Positions 2,208 through 8,225 of a stretch of DNA of 51,759 bases are shown piece by piece. The translations under genes and the position numbers were made by a program. The stretch's first letter is position 1; each line of letters begins with the position of its first letter. The notes under the pieces are model-generated. The model saw only the letters and a program-made list of their open reading frames with translations, made no database searches and was not told the origin of the DNA. The stretch is from Escherichia phage vB_EcoD_Fulano1, in the sequence record OL539459.1. One strand, given 5' to 3'.

Positions 2208-3488
2208 ATGAGTAAATCACGAATCGTTAAGGCTGATGGCTATAACGAGATCTTTAAAGGCGAGAATTGCAAATCGCGAGTAGAGCAACCATTCTACATG
2301 CAATCAATGCCATACAAGACACTTGCTGACTTTTACGAAAAAGACGGCCTGGCAAAAAGGGTTATTGACGTAGTACCAGAGGAAATGGTTTCCCCTGGCT
2401 TCACGGTTGACGGCGTGGCAGACGAGGCAGCATTCCGTTCTTTGTGGGATGAGAAGCGATTGAATGCAAAAATTATTGATGCGCTTTGCTGGTCGCGTTT
2501 GTTTGGCGGATCTGCAATCATTGCTCTTGTTCAGGATGGGCGGGCGCTCAAATCACCTGTAAAGCCTGGTGCCACGCTGGAAGACGTGCGCGTTTACGAT
2601 CGTTATCAGATTCGCGTTGAAGCGCGAGAAACAAATCCCCGCAAGGTTCGCTATGGTGAGCCAGTGCTTTACACTGTAACGCCAGGAGGAGACTTGCCGG
2701 AATACCAGGTACACTACACGCGCGTTTGCATTATCGACGGTGAGCGGATACCTAACGCAAAGCGACGCAGCAATGACGGCTGGGGTGAGTCAGTTCTTAA
2801 CAAGCGGCTTGTTGAGGCTATTGTTGATTATAACTATTGTGAAACATTAGCTACGCAATTATTGCGAAGAAAACAACAGGCAGTATGGAAGGCCAAAGGT
2901 CTTGCTGACTTGTGCGATGATGAGGAGGGTGTTAGCGCGGCACGCTTGAGACTTGCGCAGGTTGACGACGAGGGCGGCGTTGGCAAGGCCATTGGTATTG
3001 ATGCTGAGGATGAGGAATATGATGTTCTTAACTCTGACATTAGCGGCGTTGATTCTTTTCTGGAAAAGAAAATGGATCGCATCGTTTCCCTTTCAGGTAT
3101 TCATGAAATCATCCTGAAAAATAAAAACGTTGGCGGAGTTAGCGCAAGCCAAAACACGGCGCTTGAAACATTCTATAAACTTATTGAGCGAAAACGCGTC
3201 GAGGATTACAAGCCTATCCTTGAATTTCTATTGCCGTTCATCATTAGTGAGCAGGAATGGAGCATTGAGTTTTCACCTTTGAGCGTACCTAGCGATAAAG
3301 ATCAGGCTGAAATTCTGAATAAGAATATCGACTCAATCAGCAAGGCTATTGATGGTCAGTTCCTTGATGTTGAAGAAGCGCGCGACACGTTGCGAGCAAT
3401 CGCACCAAGCGTTAAACTAAAGGACACCAATAAAATCAAGCTGCCGGAGCCAACTGAGCCGGAGCCAGGCACACAGGGGAATGAGTAA
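2208..3488 (+). CDS. portal protein
   Basis: ORF track 2175..3488 trimmed to ATG 2208 behind GGAGG (2196-2200); ~430 aa gene directly after terminase, acidic C-terminus; position-based call. Confidence 0.65.
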   Translation: MSKSRIVKADGYNEIFKGENCKSRVEQPFYMQSMPYKTLADFYEKDGLAKRVIDVVPEEMVSPGFTVDGVADEAAFRSLWDEKRLNAKIIDALCWSRLFGGSAIIALVQDGRALKSPVKPGATLEDVRVYDRYQIRVEARETNPRKVRYGEPVLYTVTPGGDLPEYQVHYTRVCIIDGERIPNAKRRSNDGWGESVLNKRLVEAIVDYNYCETLATQLLRRKQQAVWKAKGLADLCDDEEGVSAARLRLAQVDDEGGVGKAIGIDAEDEEYDVLNSDISGVDSFLEKKMDRIVSLSGIHEIILKNKNVGGVSASQNTALETFYKLIERKRVEDYKPILEFLLPFIISEQEWSIEFSPLSVPSDKDQAEILNKNIDSISKAIDGQFLDVEEARDTLRAIAPSVKLKDTNKIKLPEPTEPEPGTQGNE

Positions 3489-4252
3489 TGAAAGTGAAGG
3501 GCGTCGTTAAACAATGGCGCTTTCCTGAAGCAAGCGAGCGGCAATTTAGCCGCTCAATTCAGGAGGCAATTAGAGAACTTGTAGTTCTCATGCGCAAGCG
3601 AACAAAAGCGATGAAGTTTGATGCAACAGATAATGAGATCAACAGCGCAGAAGATGAAATTAACAGCCTGGCAACTGACCTTATAGCTGGCATTGTTTCA
3701 ACTCTTCCCGCAATCGCGTTGACAATTTATAAATTCAATGCGAAGCAGTTTATCAATGTTGCCAAGTCAACTGGCGGAAAGGATAATACGGCGGTAATTG
3801 TTTTGATCGCGGTTGGCGCTAACGCTAACGAGGACTGGTATCAGACGCTATACGGTCAATGGCACGGGCTTACAGAATCATCGCTAAGGAAGTTATTCAC
3901 AAACATTGTTTCTGATTGGTCAACAAACATTCGAAATGCAAACTTTCGCGGAAGCAATGATAAACAGGTTAATGATCTTGCAGAAAAGAGATTTGCTGTT
4001 TATAGCTCTTGGGGTAAAACGAGATCAGAAAACATTATCGGCGCGTGGAATAGTCGCCTGATGCGCCAGCGCCTTTATGATGCTAAGGTGACTCATTATT
4101 TCTGGCATGGAATGTTAGATGATAGAGAGCGATTGCAGCATGTGTTATGGGAAGGTAAAAGAATAGCGCTTGATGCAATTCATGATTTCCCTGGTGAGCC
4201 GTGGGGTTGCCGTTGCTGGGCGATTCCAGATTGGAATAATAAAGGAGAGTAA
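3488..4252 (+). CDS. head morphogenesis / minor capsid protein (SPP1 gp7 / Mu F-like)
   Basis: 254 aa, start overlaps portal stop (TAATG); position after portal. Confidence 0.5.
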   Translation: MKVKGVVKQWRFPEASERQFSRSIQEAIRELVVLMRKRTKAMKFDATDNEINSAEDEINSLATDLIAGIVSTLPAIALTIYKFNAKQFINVAKSTGGKDNTAVIVLIAVGANANEDWYQTLYGQWHGLTESSLRKLFTNIVSDWSTNIRNANFRGSNDKQVNDLAEKRFAVYSSWGKTRSENIIGAWNSRLMRQRLYDAKVTHYFWHGMLDDRERLQHVLWEGKRIALDAIHDFPGEPWGCRCWAIPDWNNKGE

Positions 4253-4255
4253 TTA

Positions 4256-5368
4256 ATGAAGGCAAAACAAAGATTTGATAGCGTCCAGGTTAAGGCGCAT
4301 TTTGATGATAATGGCTTTTTAGTGGATCGCCCAATTGTGGCGCGAATTGGTTTGCAGGAGTACCGCACACCGTATGGAATCAGACGAGAGTTCCGACCAG
4401 CGTCAGAAGTGTTTAAGGCGGATTCGCTTGCTACGTTCGCAGGCAAGCCGATCACTATCGGTCACGTCACAGTGACGCCAGATAATGCGGATCAGGTTGT
4501 TGTTGGTTCATGCGCTGGTGCTGGTGTTCCAAATGGTGTTGGCGTTGAAGTTCCGTTAAGTATTTACTCAAAGCGAGCAATTGAGAGCGCAAAAAAGAAA
4601 GACACGGCGGAAATTTCAGTTGGTTACACATCAATTGATATTGATAAACCAGGTTGGGGTAATAATAAAACTGGCGATTACTTGTTTGAGGAAGACATTA
4701 AGGAAGACTGGAAGCCTGATTCCCCTGATTGGGTTAAATTTGACGCCATTCAGACGAATATCCGTGTTAATCACATTGCACTTGTCTTTCGTGGTCGTGC
4801 TGGCATTGCCAAATTAAATCTTGATAGTGAACAAGATTTTCCGTATAGTGACGAGGTTCTAAATGACAAAGGAGATGAGGAAATGACAGTAAAAATTAAA
4901 CTTGATGGCGCGGTAGAATTTGATGTTCCAAAGGCCGTTGCTGATCATATTGAGGCGTTAAAGGCAGATGCAAAAGCTGCAACAGAAAAAGCTGATGGCC
5001 TTGAGGCCGAGCGCGACGCCCTGAAAACTAAAGTCGATGGCATTCCGGCGCAGATTGCAGAAGCTGTTAAGAAGGCAAAGACTGACGCAGAAGAGCACGC
5101 CAAGCTAGTTGCAGATGCAACTGAAATTGGCATCAAGTGTGACGGCTTGGATGCTAAAGCGATCAAAGTTGCTTACGTCAAAGAAGTCACTGGCGCTGAT
5201 ATTTCAGAAAAAGCCGATGCATATATTGAAACAGCTTTTGACCTTGCGAAGCAGTCTGATAAAATGGCGGCGCAGCGTAAATCTGTTAAGGGCGATTCTT
5301 TCGGGTCTGGCAAGAATGAAAAAACCGACTCCCTTGATCCGACTGCGCGTTTGAAAAAACTTAAATAA
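4256..5368 (+). CDS. putative capsid scaffold-like protein
   Basis: 370 aa; globular N-terminal half followed by long Ala/Lys/Glu-rich coiled-coil-like C-terminal half; lies between head morphogenesis gene and capsid gene. Confidence 0.45.
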   Translation: MKAKQRFDSVQVKAHFDDNGFLVDRPIVARIGLQEYRTPYGIRREFRPASEVFKADSLATFAGKPITIGHVTVTPDNADQVVVGSCAGAGVPNGVGVEVPLSIYSKRAIESAKKKDTAEISVGYTSIDIDKPGWGNNKTGDYLFEEDIKEDWKPDSPDWVKFDAIQTNIRVNHIALVFRGRAGIAKLNLDSEQDFPYSDEVLNDKGDEEMTVKIKLDGAVEFDVPKAVADHIEALKADAKAATEKADGLEAERDALKTKVDGIPAQIAEAVKKAKTDAEEHAKLVADATEIGIKCDGLDAKAIKVAYVKEVTGADISEKADAYIETAFDLAKQSDKMAAQRKSVKGDSFGSGKNEKTDSLDPTARLKKLK

Positions 5369-5380
5369 GGAGAAATAAAC

Positions 5381-5893
5381 ATGGCTACAATTGGAGCAAG
5401 TTATTTTGCTGTAATGTCTCGTGCGTTACCTGGTCAGGTTTCTGACACTTCAGCTTATAATATTGATGGCGCTTGTGTTCTTGAGAATGCGGCAGGCAAT
5501 CAGAATCAGTCTGTTTTTGTTGGTGTGGCGGTCCAGCATGGCGGCGTTGATGCGATGGGTAATAAACTGATCAAGCCTATGGCGGCAAGCGGCAAGGCTT
5601 ACGGTGTTGCAATTCGATCCCACTTCCAGACGACTTCGGCTGACGGTCGAATGATTTATGAGTCTGGCGGCGGAATCAACGTAATGACTGAGGGGCGTGT
5701 TTGGATGTTGGCTAAAGACGCTTCCGCGCCAGCGTTCGGCACTACAATCAAGCTGTCTAATGATGGTCAGGTTGATACAGGGTCTGGCACTATCGAAACA
5801 AACTGGATCGCAACTGGTGACTTTACCGAGTTTCAAGACTTGAAGCTGGTAGAGGTTCAGGTGCAAAAAGTTCCGGCAGTTTCTGCTGGTTAA
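5381..5893 (+). CDS. capsid-associated structural protein, paralog 1 (decoration-like)
   Basis: 170 aa; shares motifs VGVAV and GRVWxL...DAxAPxxG...G(D/N)WIxTG with the next gene; RBS AAGGAG upstream. Confidence 0.4.
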   Translation: MATIGASYFAVMSRALPGQVSDTSAYNIDGACVLENAAGNQNQSVFVGVAVQHGGVDAMGNKLIKPMAASGKAYGVAIRSHFQTTSADGRMIYESGGGINVMTEGRVWMLAKDASAPAFGTTIKLSNDGQVDTGSGTIETNWIATGDFTEFQDLKLVEVQVQKVPAVSAG

Positions 5894-5900
5894 TAAATAT

Positions 5901-5924
5901 GGCGCTCACTGAGCGCCTTTTTTA
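5901..5924 (+). terminator. intrinsic terminator
   Basis: stem GGCGCTC/GAGCGCC then T6. Confidence 0.7.
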
Positions 5925-5938
5925 TATTTGGAGTTATC

Positions 5939-6373
5939 ATGAGTGATTATTCAGTCATTGTTGGCGCTGAGTCGCCAGGGTGCATGGTCGATTCTTCAAT
6001 AATGGTGATTAACGGATCTTTCGTGTGCGGAGATGAATTTATTGAGCCAGGTAAGATTGTGCGACTATCACATATAACAAGTGGATACAAAATAGCAAGT
6101 GTTAATGGGGATCTTGTTATTGGCGTGGCGGTAAGGCCACCGGACTCGTGTATATATGAGGAAGGAGATCCAGTTAATGTAGCAAGTCTAGGCAGGGTGT
6201 GGTGCTTAACGCCTGAGAGAGATGCTCCAGAATACGGAGATAAGGTGTTTGTAACGCAAGATGGTGATGCGTCATACAGTGAAGGCGACTTACTGAGCGG
6301 TTGGATCTTTACTGGCGAACATGTAAAGGTTGATCATGATTCATATATTGTCGGGGTAAGCATTAGCGCATAA
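5939..6373 (+). CDS. capsid-associated structural protein, paralog 2
   Basis: 144 aa; paralogous to 5381..5893 (IGVAV, LGRVWCL, GWIFTGE); preceded by terminator and RBS. Confidence 0.4.
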   Translation: MSDYSVIVGAESPGCMVDSSIMVINGSFVCGDEFIEPGKIVRLSHITSGYKIASVNGDLVIGVAVRPPDSCIYEEGDPVNVASLGRVWCLTPERDAPEYGDKVFVTQDGDASYSEGDLLSGWIFTGEHVKVDHDSYIVGVSISA

Positions 6374-6392
6374 CACAAAATTATGTTGCACG

Positions 6393-6410
6393 TTTAACAA
6401 AAAATGCTAT
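6393..6410 (-). promoter_or_regulatory. recurrent element (reverse orientation) TTTAACAAAAAATGCTAT
   Basis: upstream of major capsid gene but antisense to it. Confidence 0.3.
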
Positions 6411-6456
6411 CATTGGGGCGTTACATACTAACAGCCTTTATATATGGAGGAAGAAA

Positions 6457-7431
6457 ATGGAAAAAGAAAAATTTGATCAGCTAGATGCGGATATTGTTTC
6501 TAGCCATCTGGCTACTCGCGGCGTTAAGGGTGATGCTTCTGATATGGGTATCTGGACGGCGCAAGAGCTTCACAAGATCCGCTCAACTGCTTACGAGAAA
6601 GAGTATCCGGCAGGTTCAGCGCTTCGTGTGTTCCCTGTAACTAATGAGCTTTCTGATACTGATAAGACTTTTGAATATCAGATGTTTGACAAGGTTGGTT
6701 ACGCAAAAATTATCGCTGATTACACCGACGATCTGCCAACTGTTGACGCTTTAATGTCAAGCGAGTTTGGCAAGGTGTTCCGCCTGGGTAACGCGTTCTT
6801 GATCTCCATTGACGAAATCAAGGCTGGTCAGCGCACTGGTAAGAGCCTTTCCACTCGCAAGGCAAACGCAGCGCAAAACGCTCATGATCAGGAAGTTAAC
6901 CGCCTGGTGTTTAAGGGTTCAAAGCCGCATAAGATTATTTCGGTGTTTGAACACCCTAACCTGACAAAGATCGTGTCAACTGGATGGTTGAGCAACGATG
7001 AGAACACCAAGTTCCCCGAGACGGCTTCGGACGATCTTGAAAAGGCGATCGAAACCATCGAGAAGATCACGAATGGTCAGCACCGCGCAACCAATATCCT
7101 GATCCCGCCGTCAATGCGCAAGGTTCTTTCCGTTCGAATGGAAAACACCACTGAAAGTTATCTGGAATACTTCCAGAAACAAAACAGCGGAATCACCATC
7201 GACTCAATCGCAGAGCTTGAGGATATTGATGGCACTGGAACGAAAGGTTGCCTGGTATATGAGAAAGACCCGATGAACATGTCGATCGAAATTCCAGAAG
7301 CATTTAACATGCTTCCTGCGCAACCAAAAGATCTGCATTTCAAAGTTCCGTGTACTTCAAAATGTACTGGCCTGACGATTTACCGTCCGTTTACGCTAGT
7401 TCTTATTACTGGCTTGAAAAAATCAGGTTAA
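6457..7431 (+). CDS. major capsid protein
   Basis: 324 aa; RBS GGAGGA; followed by strong terminator; position and size typical of T1-like major capsid protein. Confidence 0.7.
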   Translation: MEKEKFDQLDADIVSSHLATRGVKGDASDMGIWTAQELHKIRSTAYEKEYPAGSALRVFPVTNELSDTDKTFEYQMFDKVGYAKIIADYTDDLPTVDALMSSEFGKVFRLGNAFLISIDEIKAGQRTGKSLSTRKANAAQNAHDQEVNRLVFKGSKPHKIISVFEHPNLTKIVSTGWLSNDENTKFPETASDDLEKAIETIEKITNGQHRATNILIPPSMRKVLSVRMENTTESYLEYFQKQNSGITIDSIAELEDIDGTGTKGCLVYEKDPMNMSIEIPEAFNMLPAQPKDLHFKVPCTSKCTGLTIYRPFTLVLITGLKKSG

Positions 7432-7444
7432 TCGTATAACATTG

Positions 7445-7474
7445 GGGAATCCTTAACTGGATTCCCTTTTTTTA
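7445..7474 (+). terminator. intrinsic terminator after major capsid gene
   Basis: stem GGGAATCC/GGATTCCC then T7. Confidence 0.75.
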
Positions 7475-7488
7475 TTGGAGGTTATGAA

Positions 7489-7761
7489 ATGGCTAAAGAA
7501 AAAACTGTAACGCTAAAGGTTTCCGGCGTGTGCCTTATCATTGTTGATGGTGAGCATTATCATCCAGGCAAAGAGTTTGACGTAGAAGAATCAAAATTGA
7601 AAACAAGCGCGTTTGAATATCTAATTGCAAAAGGCGATCTGGAGGTTAAAGACAACTCCGCATTGAACGAAGAAATCAAACAGAGCGCAGCAAGCAAACG
7701 TAAAAAAGATCCGCGAGAGGGCAAGAGCAAAGCCGAACTTGAAGACGGCGGCATCTATTAA
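7489..7761 (+). CDS. hypothetical protein
   Basis: 90 aa ORF bracketed by terminators, RBS GGAGG. Confidence 0.45.
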
Positions 7762-7766
7762 TAAAG

Positions 7767-7790
7767 AGGGCGCTTATAGCGCCCTTTGTC
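7767..7790 (+). terminator. terminator-like hairpin
   Basis: stem AGGGCGC/GCGCCCT, weak U-tract TTTGTC. Confidence 0.4.
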
Positions 7791-7808
7791 ATATCTGGAG
7801 GAAACACA

Positions 7809-8225
7809 ATGGTTGATGAATTTTTCACTGACGCAGAAATCACGCAGCAAATCGTGAAATTAGCGCCACCGATGAAACAGATTGATCCAGATTTAATGGT
7901 GGCATGGATTGATCTGGCAAAGGAATTTGTTTGCAAGAAGCGGTTTAAAGAATCATATCCTAAAGCGGTTGCTCTTTATACGTTGCACCTTATGACGCTT
8001 GACGGAGCTATGAAGCAAGAGGGGGAAAGCGTAGAGAGTTACTCACGGCGCGTGGCGTCATTTTCCCTGACTGGTGAATTTAGCCAGACATTTGATCGCG
8101 TGTCCGGCGATTCAAGCGGAAAAGAGATCAGGCAAACCCCGTGGGGTAAAATGTATGAGACGTTAAATAGAAAAAAAGGCGGTGGATTTGGCCTTGTGAC
8201 TGGATTTCGGAGGCGCTGCAAATGA
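7809..8225 (+). CDS. putative head-tail adaptor
   Basis: 138 aa, RBS GGAGG, first of four translationally coupled genes between capsid and major tail. Confidence 0.45.

Follow-up and report, generated by a model that had tools for sequence, protein, structure and literature searches.

Predicted major and minor capsid cement proteins encoded in tandem in the head region of a T1-like Hanrivervirus

Introduction

The head region of Escherichia phage vB_EcoD_Fulano1 (OL539459.1) contains two small adjacent genes that resemble each other, and the question raised by this locus is what their products do in the virion and how the phage makes use of two copies. The window analysed is the whole 51,759-nucleotide sequence of this phage; at issue is the region 5381-6373, which holds the open reading frames (ORFs) ORF1 and ORF2. 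An initial annotation, made from the letters of the sequence, had proposed that the two arose by local duplication of a capsid-associated, decoration- or cement-like gene, that a terminator separates them, and that they lie between a scaffold-like gene and the major capsid gene. Both reading frames are indeed present on the plus strand (Table 1), each with a GGAG-type ribosome-binding site. By nucleotide similarity the phage is a Hanrivervirus (Drexlerviridae): across 4256-7431 it shares 97% identity with Escherichia phage Henu8, and with Shigella phage pSf-1, JakobBernoulli and many others the figure is 95-96%; the annotated records that were opened (JakobBernoulli, phiE31-2) belong to Drexlerviridae, Tempevirinae, genus Hanrivervirus.

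We propose, with a probability of roughly 0.85, that ORF1 and ORF2 encode the major (CP1) and the minor (CP2) cement protein of a T1-like Hanrivervirus siphophage, and that the level of CP2 is graded by the gene layout. The cement pair as such is already known, as this is the Hanrivervirus version of gp49 and gp48 of phage T1, which were structurally described in 2025. What is added here is comparative: the C-terminal Big_2 domain of the minor protein is often absent, the terminator between the genes carries compensatory changes, and the minor gene always lies in the gap between that terminator and a promoter-like element.

Results

ORF1 and ORF2 are diverged copies of one cement gene

As checks on the proposed duplication, the initial annotation had named a pairwise alignment, structure prediction and a count of gene copies in relatives. 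The pairwise alignment was significant (BLASTP, E=4e-13, 29% identity across 104 amino acids), and the two copies are 27-29% identical. In a MAFFT alignment of 41 sequences the two proteins were homologous end to end, from the first residues to the last strand, and the invariant positions run, in ORF2 numbering, from Y4, P13, G14, D18, I24 and G26 to W122 and G126. Both proteins exceeded the Pfam gathering score of 27 bits for PF22758 (Phage_cement; E217 gp24/Pam3 gp6), with 90.7 bits for ORF1 and 49.6 bits for ORF2, and for PF23982 (XM1_gp53 minor capsid protein), with 64.5 and 81.2 bits, respectively. PHROG 1989 was matched by ORF1 at E=5e-54 and by ORF2 at E=3e-37. Judged from these comparisons, ORF1 and ORF2 are full-length paralogs, diverged copies of one capsid cement gene.

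The motifs from which the duplication had first been read were found to hold for three of the four pairs. In register are GRVWML (ORF1 105-110) and GRVWCL (ORF2 85-90), which agree with GRVWxL; APAFG (ORF1 116-120) and APEYG (ORF2 96-100); and WIATGD (ORF1 142-147) and WIFTGE (ORF2 122-127), which agree with WIxTG[DE]. The second of these had been given as DAxAPxxG, which is present in ORF1 (DASAPAFG) but not in ORF2, where the sequence reads DAPEYG, and the motif common to both is APxxG. The pairing of VGVAV with IGVAV was out of register: IGVAV of ORF2 (61-65) aligns to YGVAI of ORF1 (74-78), and VGVAV of ORF1 (47-51) aligns to PGKIV of ORF2 (37-41), with the same register in HMMER alignments to T1 gp49. 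A 138-amino-acid antisense reading frame within ORF1 (5450-5866, minus strand) had no PHROG match and was treated as spurious.

ORF1 corresponds to T1 gp49 and ORF2 to the N-terminal domain of T1 gp48

Residues 1-162 of ORF1 matched a 158-amino-acid chain of the T1 capsid (PDB 9KZJ) and of the FCWL1 capsid (9KMG, 9KMH) at E=5e-46; the chain is deposited as 'cement protein II / decoration protein'. The AlphaFold2 model of ORF1 was all-beta with a predicted local distance difference test score (pLDDT) of 83.7, and Foldseek aligned it to 9kmg and 9kzj_I with template modeling (TM) scores of 0.80-0.89 and an identity of 51-52% to T1 gp49 and the FCWL1 chain. ORF1 differs from T1 gp49 in a 6-residue insertion after residue 35 and in a longer C-terminal tail. 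The N-terminal arm was conserved: 17 of the first 32 residues were invariant among 30 CP1 sequences, including I4, Y8, A15-G18 and Y26-C32. On this evidence we regard ORF1 as the ortholog of T1 gp49 and of the FCWL1 'cement protein II'. Two CP1 homologs, P0110 (168 amino acids) and P0116 (195 amino acids), were observed to carry short tandem peptide repeats (GKPDGGEV-like and DGTVKLD-like) in two loops, which are gaps in all other aligned CP1 sequences.

ORF2 matched the same 158-amino-acid chain at E=3e-10. A further match, at E=1e-8 and 2e-7 and limited to the first ~143 residues of the target, was to the 255-amino-acid protein deposited as 'BIG2 domain-containing protein / decoration protein gp29'. 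Likewise ORF2 aligned to residues 9-143 only of T1 gp48, with residue 144 of ORF2 opposite residue 143 of gp48. T1 gp48 (255 amino acids) ends in a C-terminal Big_2 domain of ~100 amino acids, whereas CP2 of the window (144 amino acids) lacks this domain of the gp48-type subunit: ORF2 had no Pfam match to Big_2, and no Big_2 remnant was found in the 83 nucleotides between the CP2 stop and the major capsid start. The AlphaFold2 model of ORF2 was again all-beta (pLDDT 80.8), with Foldseek TM scores of 0.72-0.78 to 9kmg, 9kzj_H and 9kmh_ak. On these alignments ORF2 corresponds to the beta-tulip domain at the N terminus of T1 gp48 and FCWL1 gp29.

For both models the FCWL1/T1 cement chains were the best Foldseek hits (E down to 3e-17), followed by Pam3, XM1, E217, Borrelia BB1 and TW1. 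The structure prediction, with TM scores of 0.72-0.89 to the T1/FCWL1 cement chains, and the membership of both proteins in PF22758 and PF23982 bear out the assignment to a decoration- or cement-type gene, the more so as the T1 orthologs gp49 and gp48 have been modelled in the virion from cryo-electron microscopy (cryo-EM) data.

An old duplication, and a C-terminal domain that comes and goes

A CP1 profile retrieved 75 loci of relatives from IMG/VR, to which 10 annotated loci from GenBank were added, and all were scored with a cement hidden Markov model and with the protease and major capsid protein of the window as queries. The order of the head module (protease, cement gene or genes, major capsid gene) was held in all 80 scored loci. 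Two tandem cement genes were found in 59 of them, in every case with CP1 and then CP2 between the protease and major capsid genes, and a single cement gene in 21, including Rtp-like phages, the Nouzillyvirus P817 and the outgroup Xanthomonas myophage DIBBI. In a quick neighbor-joining distance tree without support values, rooted on DIBBI, CP1 formed one clade. The CP2 proteins, with which ORF2 groups, stood beside and outside the CP1 clade; their branches were longer, and they split into three lineages at one unresolved node, with short and long forms interleaved.

The duplication is a tandem one, as had been proposed, but it is not a recent event, because it is common to all 59 two-copy Drexlerviridae loci scored and because the first copies form one clade. 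A recent local duplication was rejected in view of the 27-29% identity of the copies and of the occurrence of the pair across subfamilies.

CP2 proteins fell into two length classes, 143-173 amino acids in 30 loci and 250-338 amino acids in 29 loci. These classes came from an exhaustive representative search and the locus survey; a word-indexed protein search with ORF2 returned close relatives only. The long forms that were scanned carry Big_2 (T1, 255 amino acids; W011D, 269 amino acids). Since 30 of the 59 CP2 proteins are short like ORF2, Big_2 is an accessory domain within the clade, and the Big_2-less CP2 of the window is the usual form in its genus and no exception in the family. A single old duplication, with repeated later loss or exchange of the immunoglobulin-like (Ig-like) domain, fits this pattern.

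Some individual loci deserve mention. In Escherichia phage IsaakIselin (MZ501077.1, 2501-3203; locus L004) an in-frame TAG breaks the CP2 gene after residue 165, and the Big_2-like part continues in the CP2 frame, as a single tblastn high-scoring segment pair covers residues 1-265 of W011D CP2 at 41% identity. This looks like a loss of Big_2 caught in progress, and it could be a recent truncation, a sequencing error or a case of stop-codon read-through. The 71-amino-acid reading frame annotated after this CP2 is out of frame and has no Pfam or PHROG match, and was rejected in favor of the CP2-frame continuation that tblastn supports. In UViG_3300045988_004116 of IMG/VR (4040-5056; L056) a 338-amino-acid CP2 has two matched Big_2 stretches (E=6e-19), which shows that duplication, and not just loss, of the outward domain can occur. 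The single-copy cement protein of Escherichia phage P817 (Nouzillyvirus, 2986-3597; L010), of 203 amino acids, ends in a collagen-like Gly-X-Y tail, with a Pfam Collagen match (E=7e-6) and many PHROG tail-fibre collagen matches. If this tail makes a triple helix on a trimeric cement protein, a capsid fibre would form.

The second copy is maintained

A second copy that has lost its C-terminal domain might be a decaying remnant that is non-functional and merely still open. CP2 does evolve faster than CP1 (87-92% against 93-99% identity among Hanriverviruses), its branches in the tree are longer, and truncations do happen, as in IsaakIselin, where the in-frame TAG cuts CP2 before the Big_2-like part. 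Yet the ratio of non-synonymous to synonymous substitution rates (dN/dS), computed among seven Hanriverviruses, was 0.18 for CP2, as compared to 0.11 for CP1, 0.07 for the major capsid protein and 0.05 for the protease, and neither CP1 nor CP2 had stops or indels in any of the seven. In a large protein collection 18 of 22 CP2 clusters were exactly 144 amino acids long. The ribosome-binding site of CP2 is conserved, the invariant residues of the family are present in ORF2, and the short CP2 has been retained in several separate lineages among the 30 loci. These substitution patterns place CP2 clearly under purifying selection, though it is less constrained than CP1, and we consider a decaying remnant very improbable.

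The minor gene lies between a terminator and a promoter-like element

The terminator that the initial annotation had placed between the copies was found (Table 1). Its stem has 7 base pairs, 6 of them GC pairs, and a 3-nucleotide loop, ACT. A GC-rich hairpin with a T tract follows CP1 directly in 59 of 59 two-copy loci, in 26 distinct hairpin sequences, and each stem position is occupied by 3-5 types of pair with the pairing always kept. The hairpins were counted by direct stem search; a detector of minimum free energy in a fixed 55-nucleotide span missed 9 of them because alternative folds won. The same terminator is annotated as 'terminator' in phage vB_EcoS_G29-2. A scan of 5300-7900 against Rfam (E<=1) identified no known RNA family; the one match, of the terminator hairpin to the Histone3 stem-loop model, was below threshold and is put down to chance. 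Because pairing is kept across 26 different sequences in all 59 loci, the hairpin is predicted to be a functional intrinsic terminator, with strong comparative support.

Downstream of CP2 lies a promoter-like element with the sequence TTGCACGTTTAACAAAAAATGCTATCAT (6386-6413) and an extended -10 of the form TGnTATCAT (TGcTATCAT here). TTGCACGTTTAACAAAAARTGCTATCAT or a close variant occurs at the same position in nearly all Drexlerviridae loci, single-copy ones included. The element was missed by a simple promoter scan, as its -35 matches in 3 of 6 positions, and was recognised through its conservation and the extended -10; it is a candidate promoter of the major capsid gene. The simple scan, which also missed this conserved element, called no promoter-like site between 5381 and 5938. 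In single-copy relatives the order is cement gene stop, terminator, the same promoter-like element, hairpin and major capsid gene; in two-copy phages CP2 thus occupies precisely the interval between the terminator and the promoter-like element.

An imperfect hairpin follows the promoter-like element, and its position is kept in relatives with varied stems (GGCTGTTA/TAACAGCC, GCCGTGA/TCACGGC, GCCGTTA/.. and others) and compensatory changes. In T1 the hairpin at this position is followed by T6 and is terminator-like. Possible roles are those of a stabilising stem-loop at the 5' end and of an attenuator.

Given its place between the CP1 terminator and the promoter-like site of the major capsid gene, CP2 is probably transcribed only by read-through of the CP1 terminator, and would then be a minor species, which fits the 6:1 ratio of gp49 to gp48 in T1. 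Expression would be graded by the gene layout, with the terminator ending the CP1 message and the promoter-like site driving the major capsid gene. Alternatively, the hairpin at 5901-5923 may have no part in the CP1:CP2 ratio and serve as a full stop of the upstream operon or as an mRNA-stabilising 3' hairpin, with the CP2 level coming from translation or from another transcript. Hairpins are also found 3' of the major capsid gene (7444-7467) and of the gene after it (7767-7785), so punctuating hairpins are general in the late region, and the stem at issue is just 7 base pairs with a 3-nucleotide loop and a modest folding z-score (-1.77). On the other hand, the stem is 21 nucleotides from the CP2 start codon and the T6 run 6 nucleotides from the ribosome-binding site, which leaves no room for a promoter between the terminator tail and this site; with this tight spacing, and with no promoter-like site called within CP1, any CP2 mRNA must cross the hairpin. 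The retention of hairpin and T tract in 59 of 59 loci despite 26 sequences, and the order of terminator then promoter also in single-copy relatives, speak against this alternative as well. We regard a hairpin without a role in the ratio as unlikely, though it has to be taken seriously.

Flanking genes and names in the databases

The features of the region are collected in Table 1. The upstream gene, first described as scaffold-like, encodes a DUF2213 prohead protease, and the description is apt for its C-terminal half only, which is coiled-coil and scaffold-like. The downstream neighbor is the major capsid gene, as had been expected.

Table 1. Features of the head region of vB_EcoD_Fulano1 (positions in the window)
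Feature	Position	Strand	Basis and remarks
DUF2213 prohead (head maturation) protease, 370 amino acids, coiled-coil C-terminal half	4256..5368	+	PF09979 E=4e-27; PHROG 530 'head maturation protease' E=8e-111
CP1 (ORF1), predicted trimeric beta-tulip major cement protein, 170 amino acids	5381..5893	+	PF22758 E=1e-25; PDB 9kmg/9kzj E=5e-46; dN/dS 0.11
Predicted intrinsic terminator, GGCGCTC-ACT-GAGCGCC + T6	5901..5923	+	Stem 5901-5917, T tract 5918-5923; conserved across relatives
CP2 ribosome-binding site, GGAG, 5 nucleotides 5' of ATG	5930..5933	+	Sequence read; directly after terminator tail
CP2 (ORF2), predicted minor cement paralog, 144 amino acids	5939..6373	+	PF23982 E=9e-23; PF22758 E=6e-13; PDB 9kzj_H E=1e-8; dN/dS 0.18
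Promoter-like element: -35 TTGCAC (6386-6391), 16-nucleotide spacer, extended -10 TG (6405-6406), TATCAT (6408-6413)	6386..6413	+	Conservation
Imperfect hairpin between promoter-like element and major capsid ribosome-binding site (GGAGG 6446-6450)	6417..6436	+	Position kept in relatives
Major capsid protein, 324 amino acids, HK97 fold, DUF2184 family	6457..7431	+	PF09950 E=2e-54; PHROG 264 E=8e-101
Terminator-like hairpin + T7 directly after the major capsid gene, then ribosome-binding site and next gene	7444..7467	+	Layout as in the CP1/CP2 gap

Directly after the major capsid gene, at 7489-7761, lies a gene for a DUF7444 protein of 90 amino acids and unknown function (PF24231 E=7e-38; PHROG 2716), which is conserved in all Drexlerviridae loci looked at and is mislabelled 'major capsid protein' in phiE31-2. 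It is followed by a hairpin with a weak T tract (7767-7785), and the next ribosome-binding site is directly 3' of this hairpin. The hairpins that punctuate the late head region may grade expression gene by gene.

In GenBank, ORF2 and its relatives are labelled 'hypothetical protein', and several of the names in this region were found to be wrong. CP1 is misnamed 'putative zonula occludens toxin' or 'major capsid protein', CP2 'scaffolding protein' or, even where Big_2 is absent (phiE31-2), 'BIG2 domain-containing protein', and the protease 'major head subunit precursor' or 'capsid and scaffold protein'. In addition, 19 records of 'Campylobacter phage' (e.g. A121 and A139; host Campylobacter jejuni) match the head region of Hanrivervirus from E. 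coli and Shigella, with 91% identity for the CP2 of A139. The Campylobacter host labels look doubtful and point to contamination or mislabelling.

Discussion

In the T1 head, a T=7 particle, cryo-EM has identified 80 homotrimers of gp49 and 60 heterotrimers of one gp48 and two gp49 (PMC11945409). Each head has 360 copies of gp49, 60 of gp48 and 415 of gp47, and the ratio of gp49 to gp48 is 6:1 (PMC11945409). Both cement proteins have the beta-tulip fold, the N-terminal arm of gp49 is embedded in the inner capsid surface while gp48 is found on the outside only, and it is through its N-terminal beta-tulip domain that gp48 makes the heterotrimer contacts (PMC11945409). The C-terminal Big_2 domain of gp48 points outward and has been proposed to aid T1 adsorption (PMC11945409). 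T1 and FCWL1 are, like the phage of the window, Drexlerviridae with the order protease, CP1, terminator, CP2, promoter and major capsid gene. They differ in that their particles have been solved (PDB 9KZJ; 9KMG and 9KMH), whereas the Hanrivervirus pair is known here from its genes and predicted models; searches of the literature for virion proteomics or structures of Hanrivervirus returned none.

By analogy with T1 gp49, CP1 would be the abundant subunit: its beta-tulip trimers would occupy the threefold and quasi-threefold sites of a T=7 shell of the HK97 type, with the conserved N-terminal arm threading into the capsid wall. CP2, the old and faster-evolving paralog, most likely takes the place of a CP1 subunit in 60 of the 140 trimers, if heterotrimers form in this phage as they do in T1. 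As it has no Big_2, its retained role would be that of a structural beta-tulip and not of surface display.

The trimers that contain CP2 may be those adjacent to the fivefold vertices. That the gp48-type subunit faces the vertex in the trimers surrounding each fivefold vertex is suggested by three observations: 60 copies per head equal 5 x 12, the portal-vertex model of FCWL1 holds 5 chains of the gp48 homolog, and according to a figure legend two of the six trimers around the penton-adjacent hexon of T1 are heterotrimers (PMC11945409). Such a placement, if true, accounts for the survival of the CP2 beta-tulip core in phages that no longer have the Ig-like domain.

ORF2 could instead be an independent decoration protein, which makes homotrimers of its own or binds elsewhere, for example at hexon centres or at the portal vertex, and does not enter heterotrimers with CP1. 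Since CP2 is ~30% identical to gp48 and has no C-terminal domain, the T1 mode of assembly need not carry over. However, the part retained is the very beta-tulip domain that makes the heterotrimer contacts in T1, and CP2 groups with gp48-type proteins outside the CP1 clade. The T=7 shell moreover has 140 trimer sites, which in T1 are all filled by gp48 and gp49 together. An independent role for CP2 appears improbable.

Several points weigh against the proposal of a major and a minor cement protein with graded expression. The presence of CP2 in the capsid and its copy number are extrapolated from T1 and FCWL1, across the ~30% identity between CP2 and gp48. Penton-adjacent heterotrimers are not stated in PMC11945409, and their position is our reading of the copy numbers and the figure legend. 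The tree lacks support values and does not recover CP2 as one resolved clade. With regard to expression, the terminator could be strong, and CP2 would then be made from processed or otherwise initiated RNA; the hairpin could also serve chiefly to stabilise the upstream message at its 3' end; and the promoter proposed before the major capsid gene has a weak -35, its support being conservation.

Similar cement proteins are known from other phages. Those of E217, Pam3 and XM1 belong to the same Pfam families, and Foldseek identified Pam3 8hdt_G, XM1 7kmx_a and E217 8frs_f at 12-22% identity. In Xanthomonas phage DIBBI, the one outgroup locus looked at, the cement gene likewise lies beside the genes for a DUF2213 protease and a DUF2184 major capsid protein, but in a single copy. 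Lambda gpD and TW1 gp56 are alike in being trimeric beta-tulip proteins at threefold positions that reinforce an HK97-type shell after its expansion, a comparison made in PMC11945409. TW1 5wk1_K was found by Foldseek at a TM score of ~0.6, and lambda gpD was not among the top 50 hits. They differ in that they have no detectable sequence relation to the present pair, form homotrimers from a single gene and bind the outer surface only, whereas the N-terminal arm of T1 gp49 penetrates the shell.

A stronger interpretation, which we put forward tentatively and at a little under even odds, is that the duplicate cement gene became fixed in a transcriptional 'dead zone', where terminator read-through alone would set the ~1:6 ratio of minor to major subunit, and that the repeated loss of Big_2, as in this genus, would reveal the essential role of the minor paralog to be a geometry-specific, vertex-adjacent position and not surface display.

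For annotation, ORF1, ORF2 and their relatives can be renamed major and minor capsid cement proteins, a change of little weight beyond annotation itself. For the family, roughly half of the sampled lineages can dispense with the Ig-like domain on the minor subunit, and the position of the minor gene between a conserved terminator and the promoter of the capsid gene would offer a simple, testable way to fix the stoichiometry of two subunits. Such phages are used in therapy and display, and a non-essential exposed C terminus on a capsid protein of 60 copies would be a natural display site.

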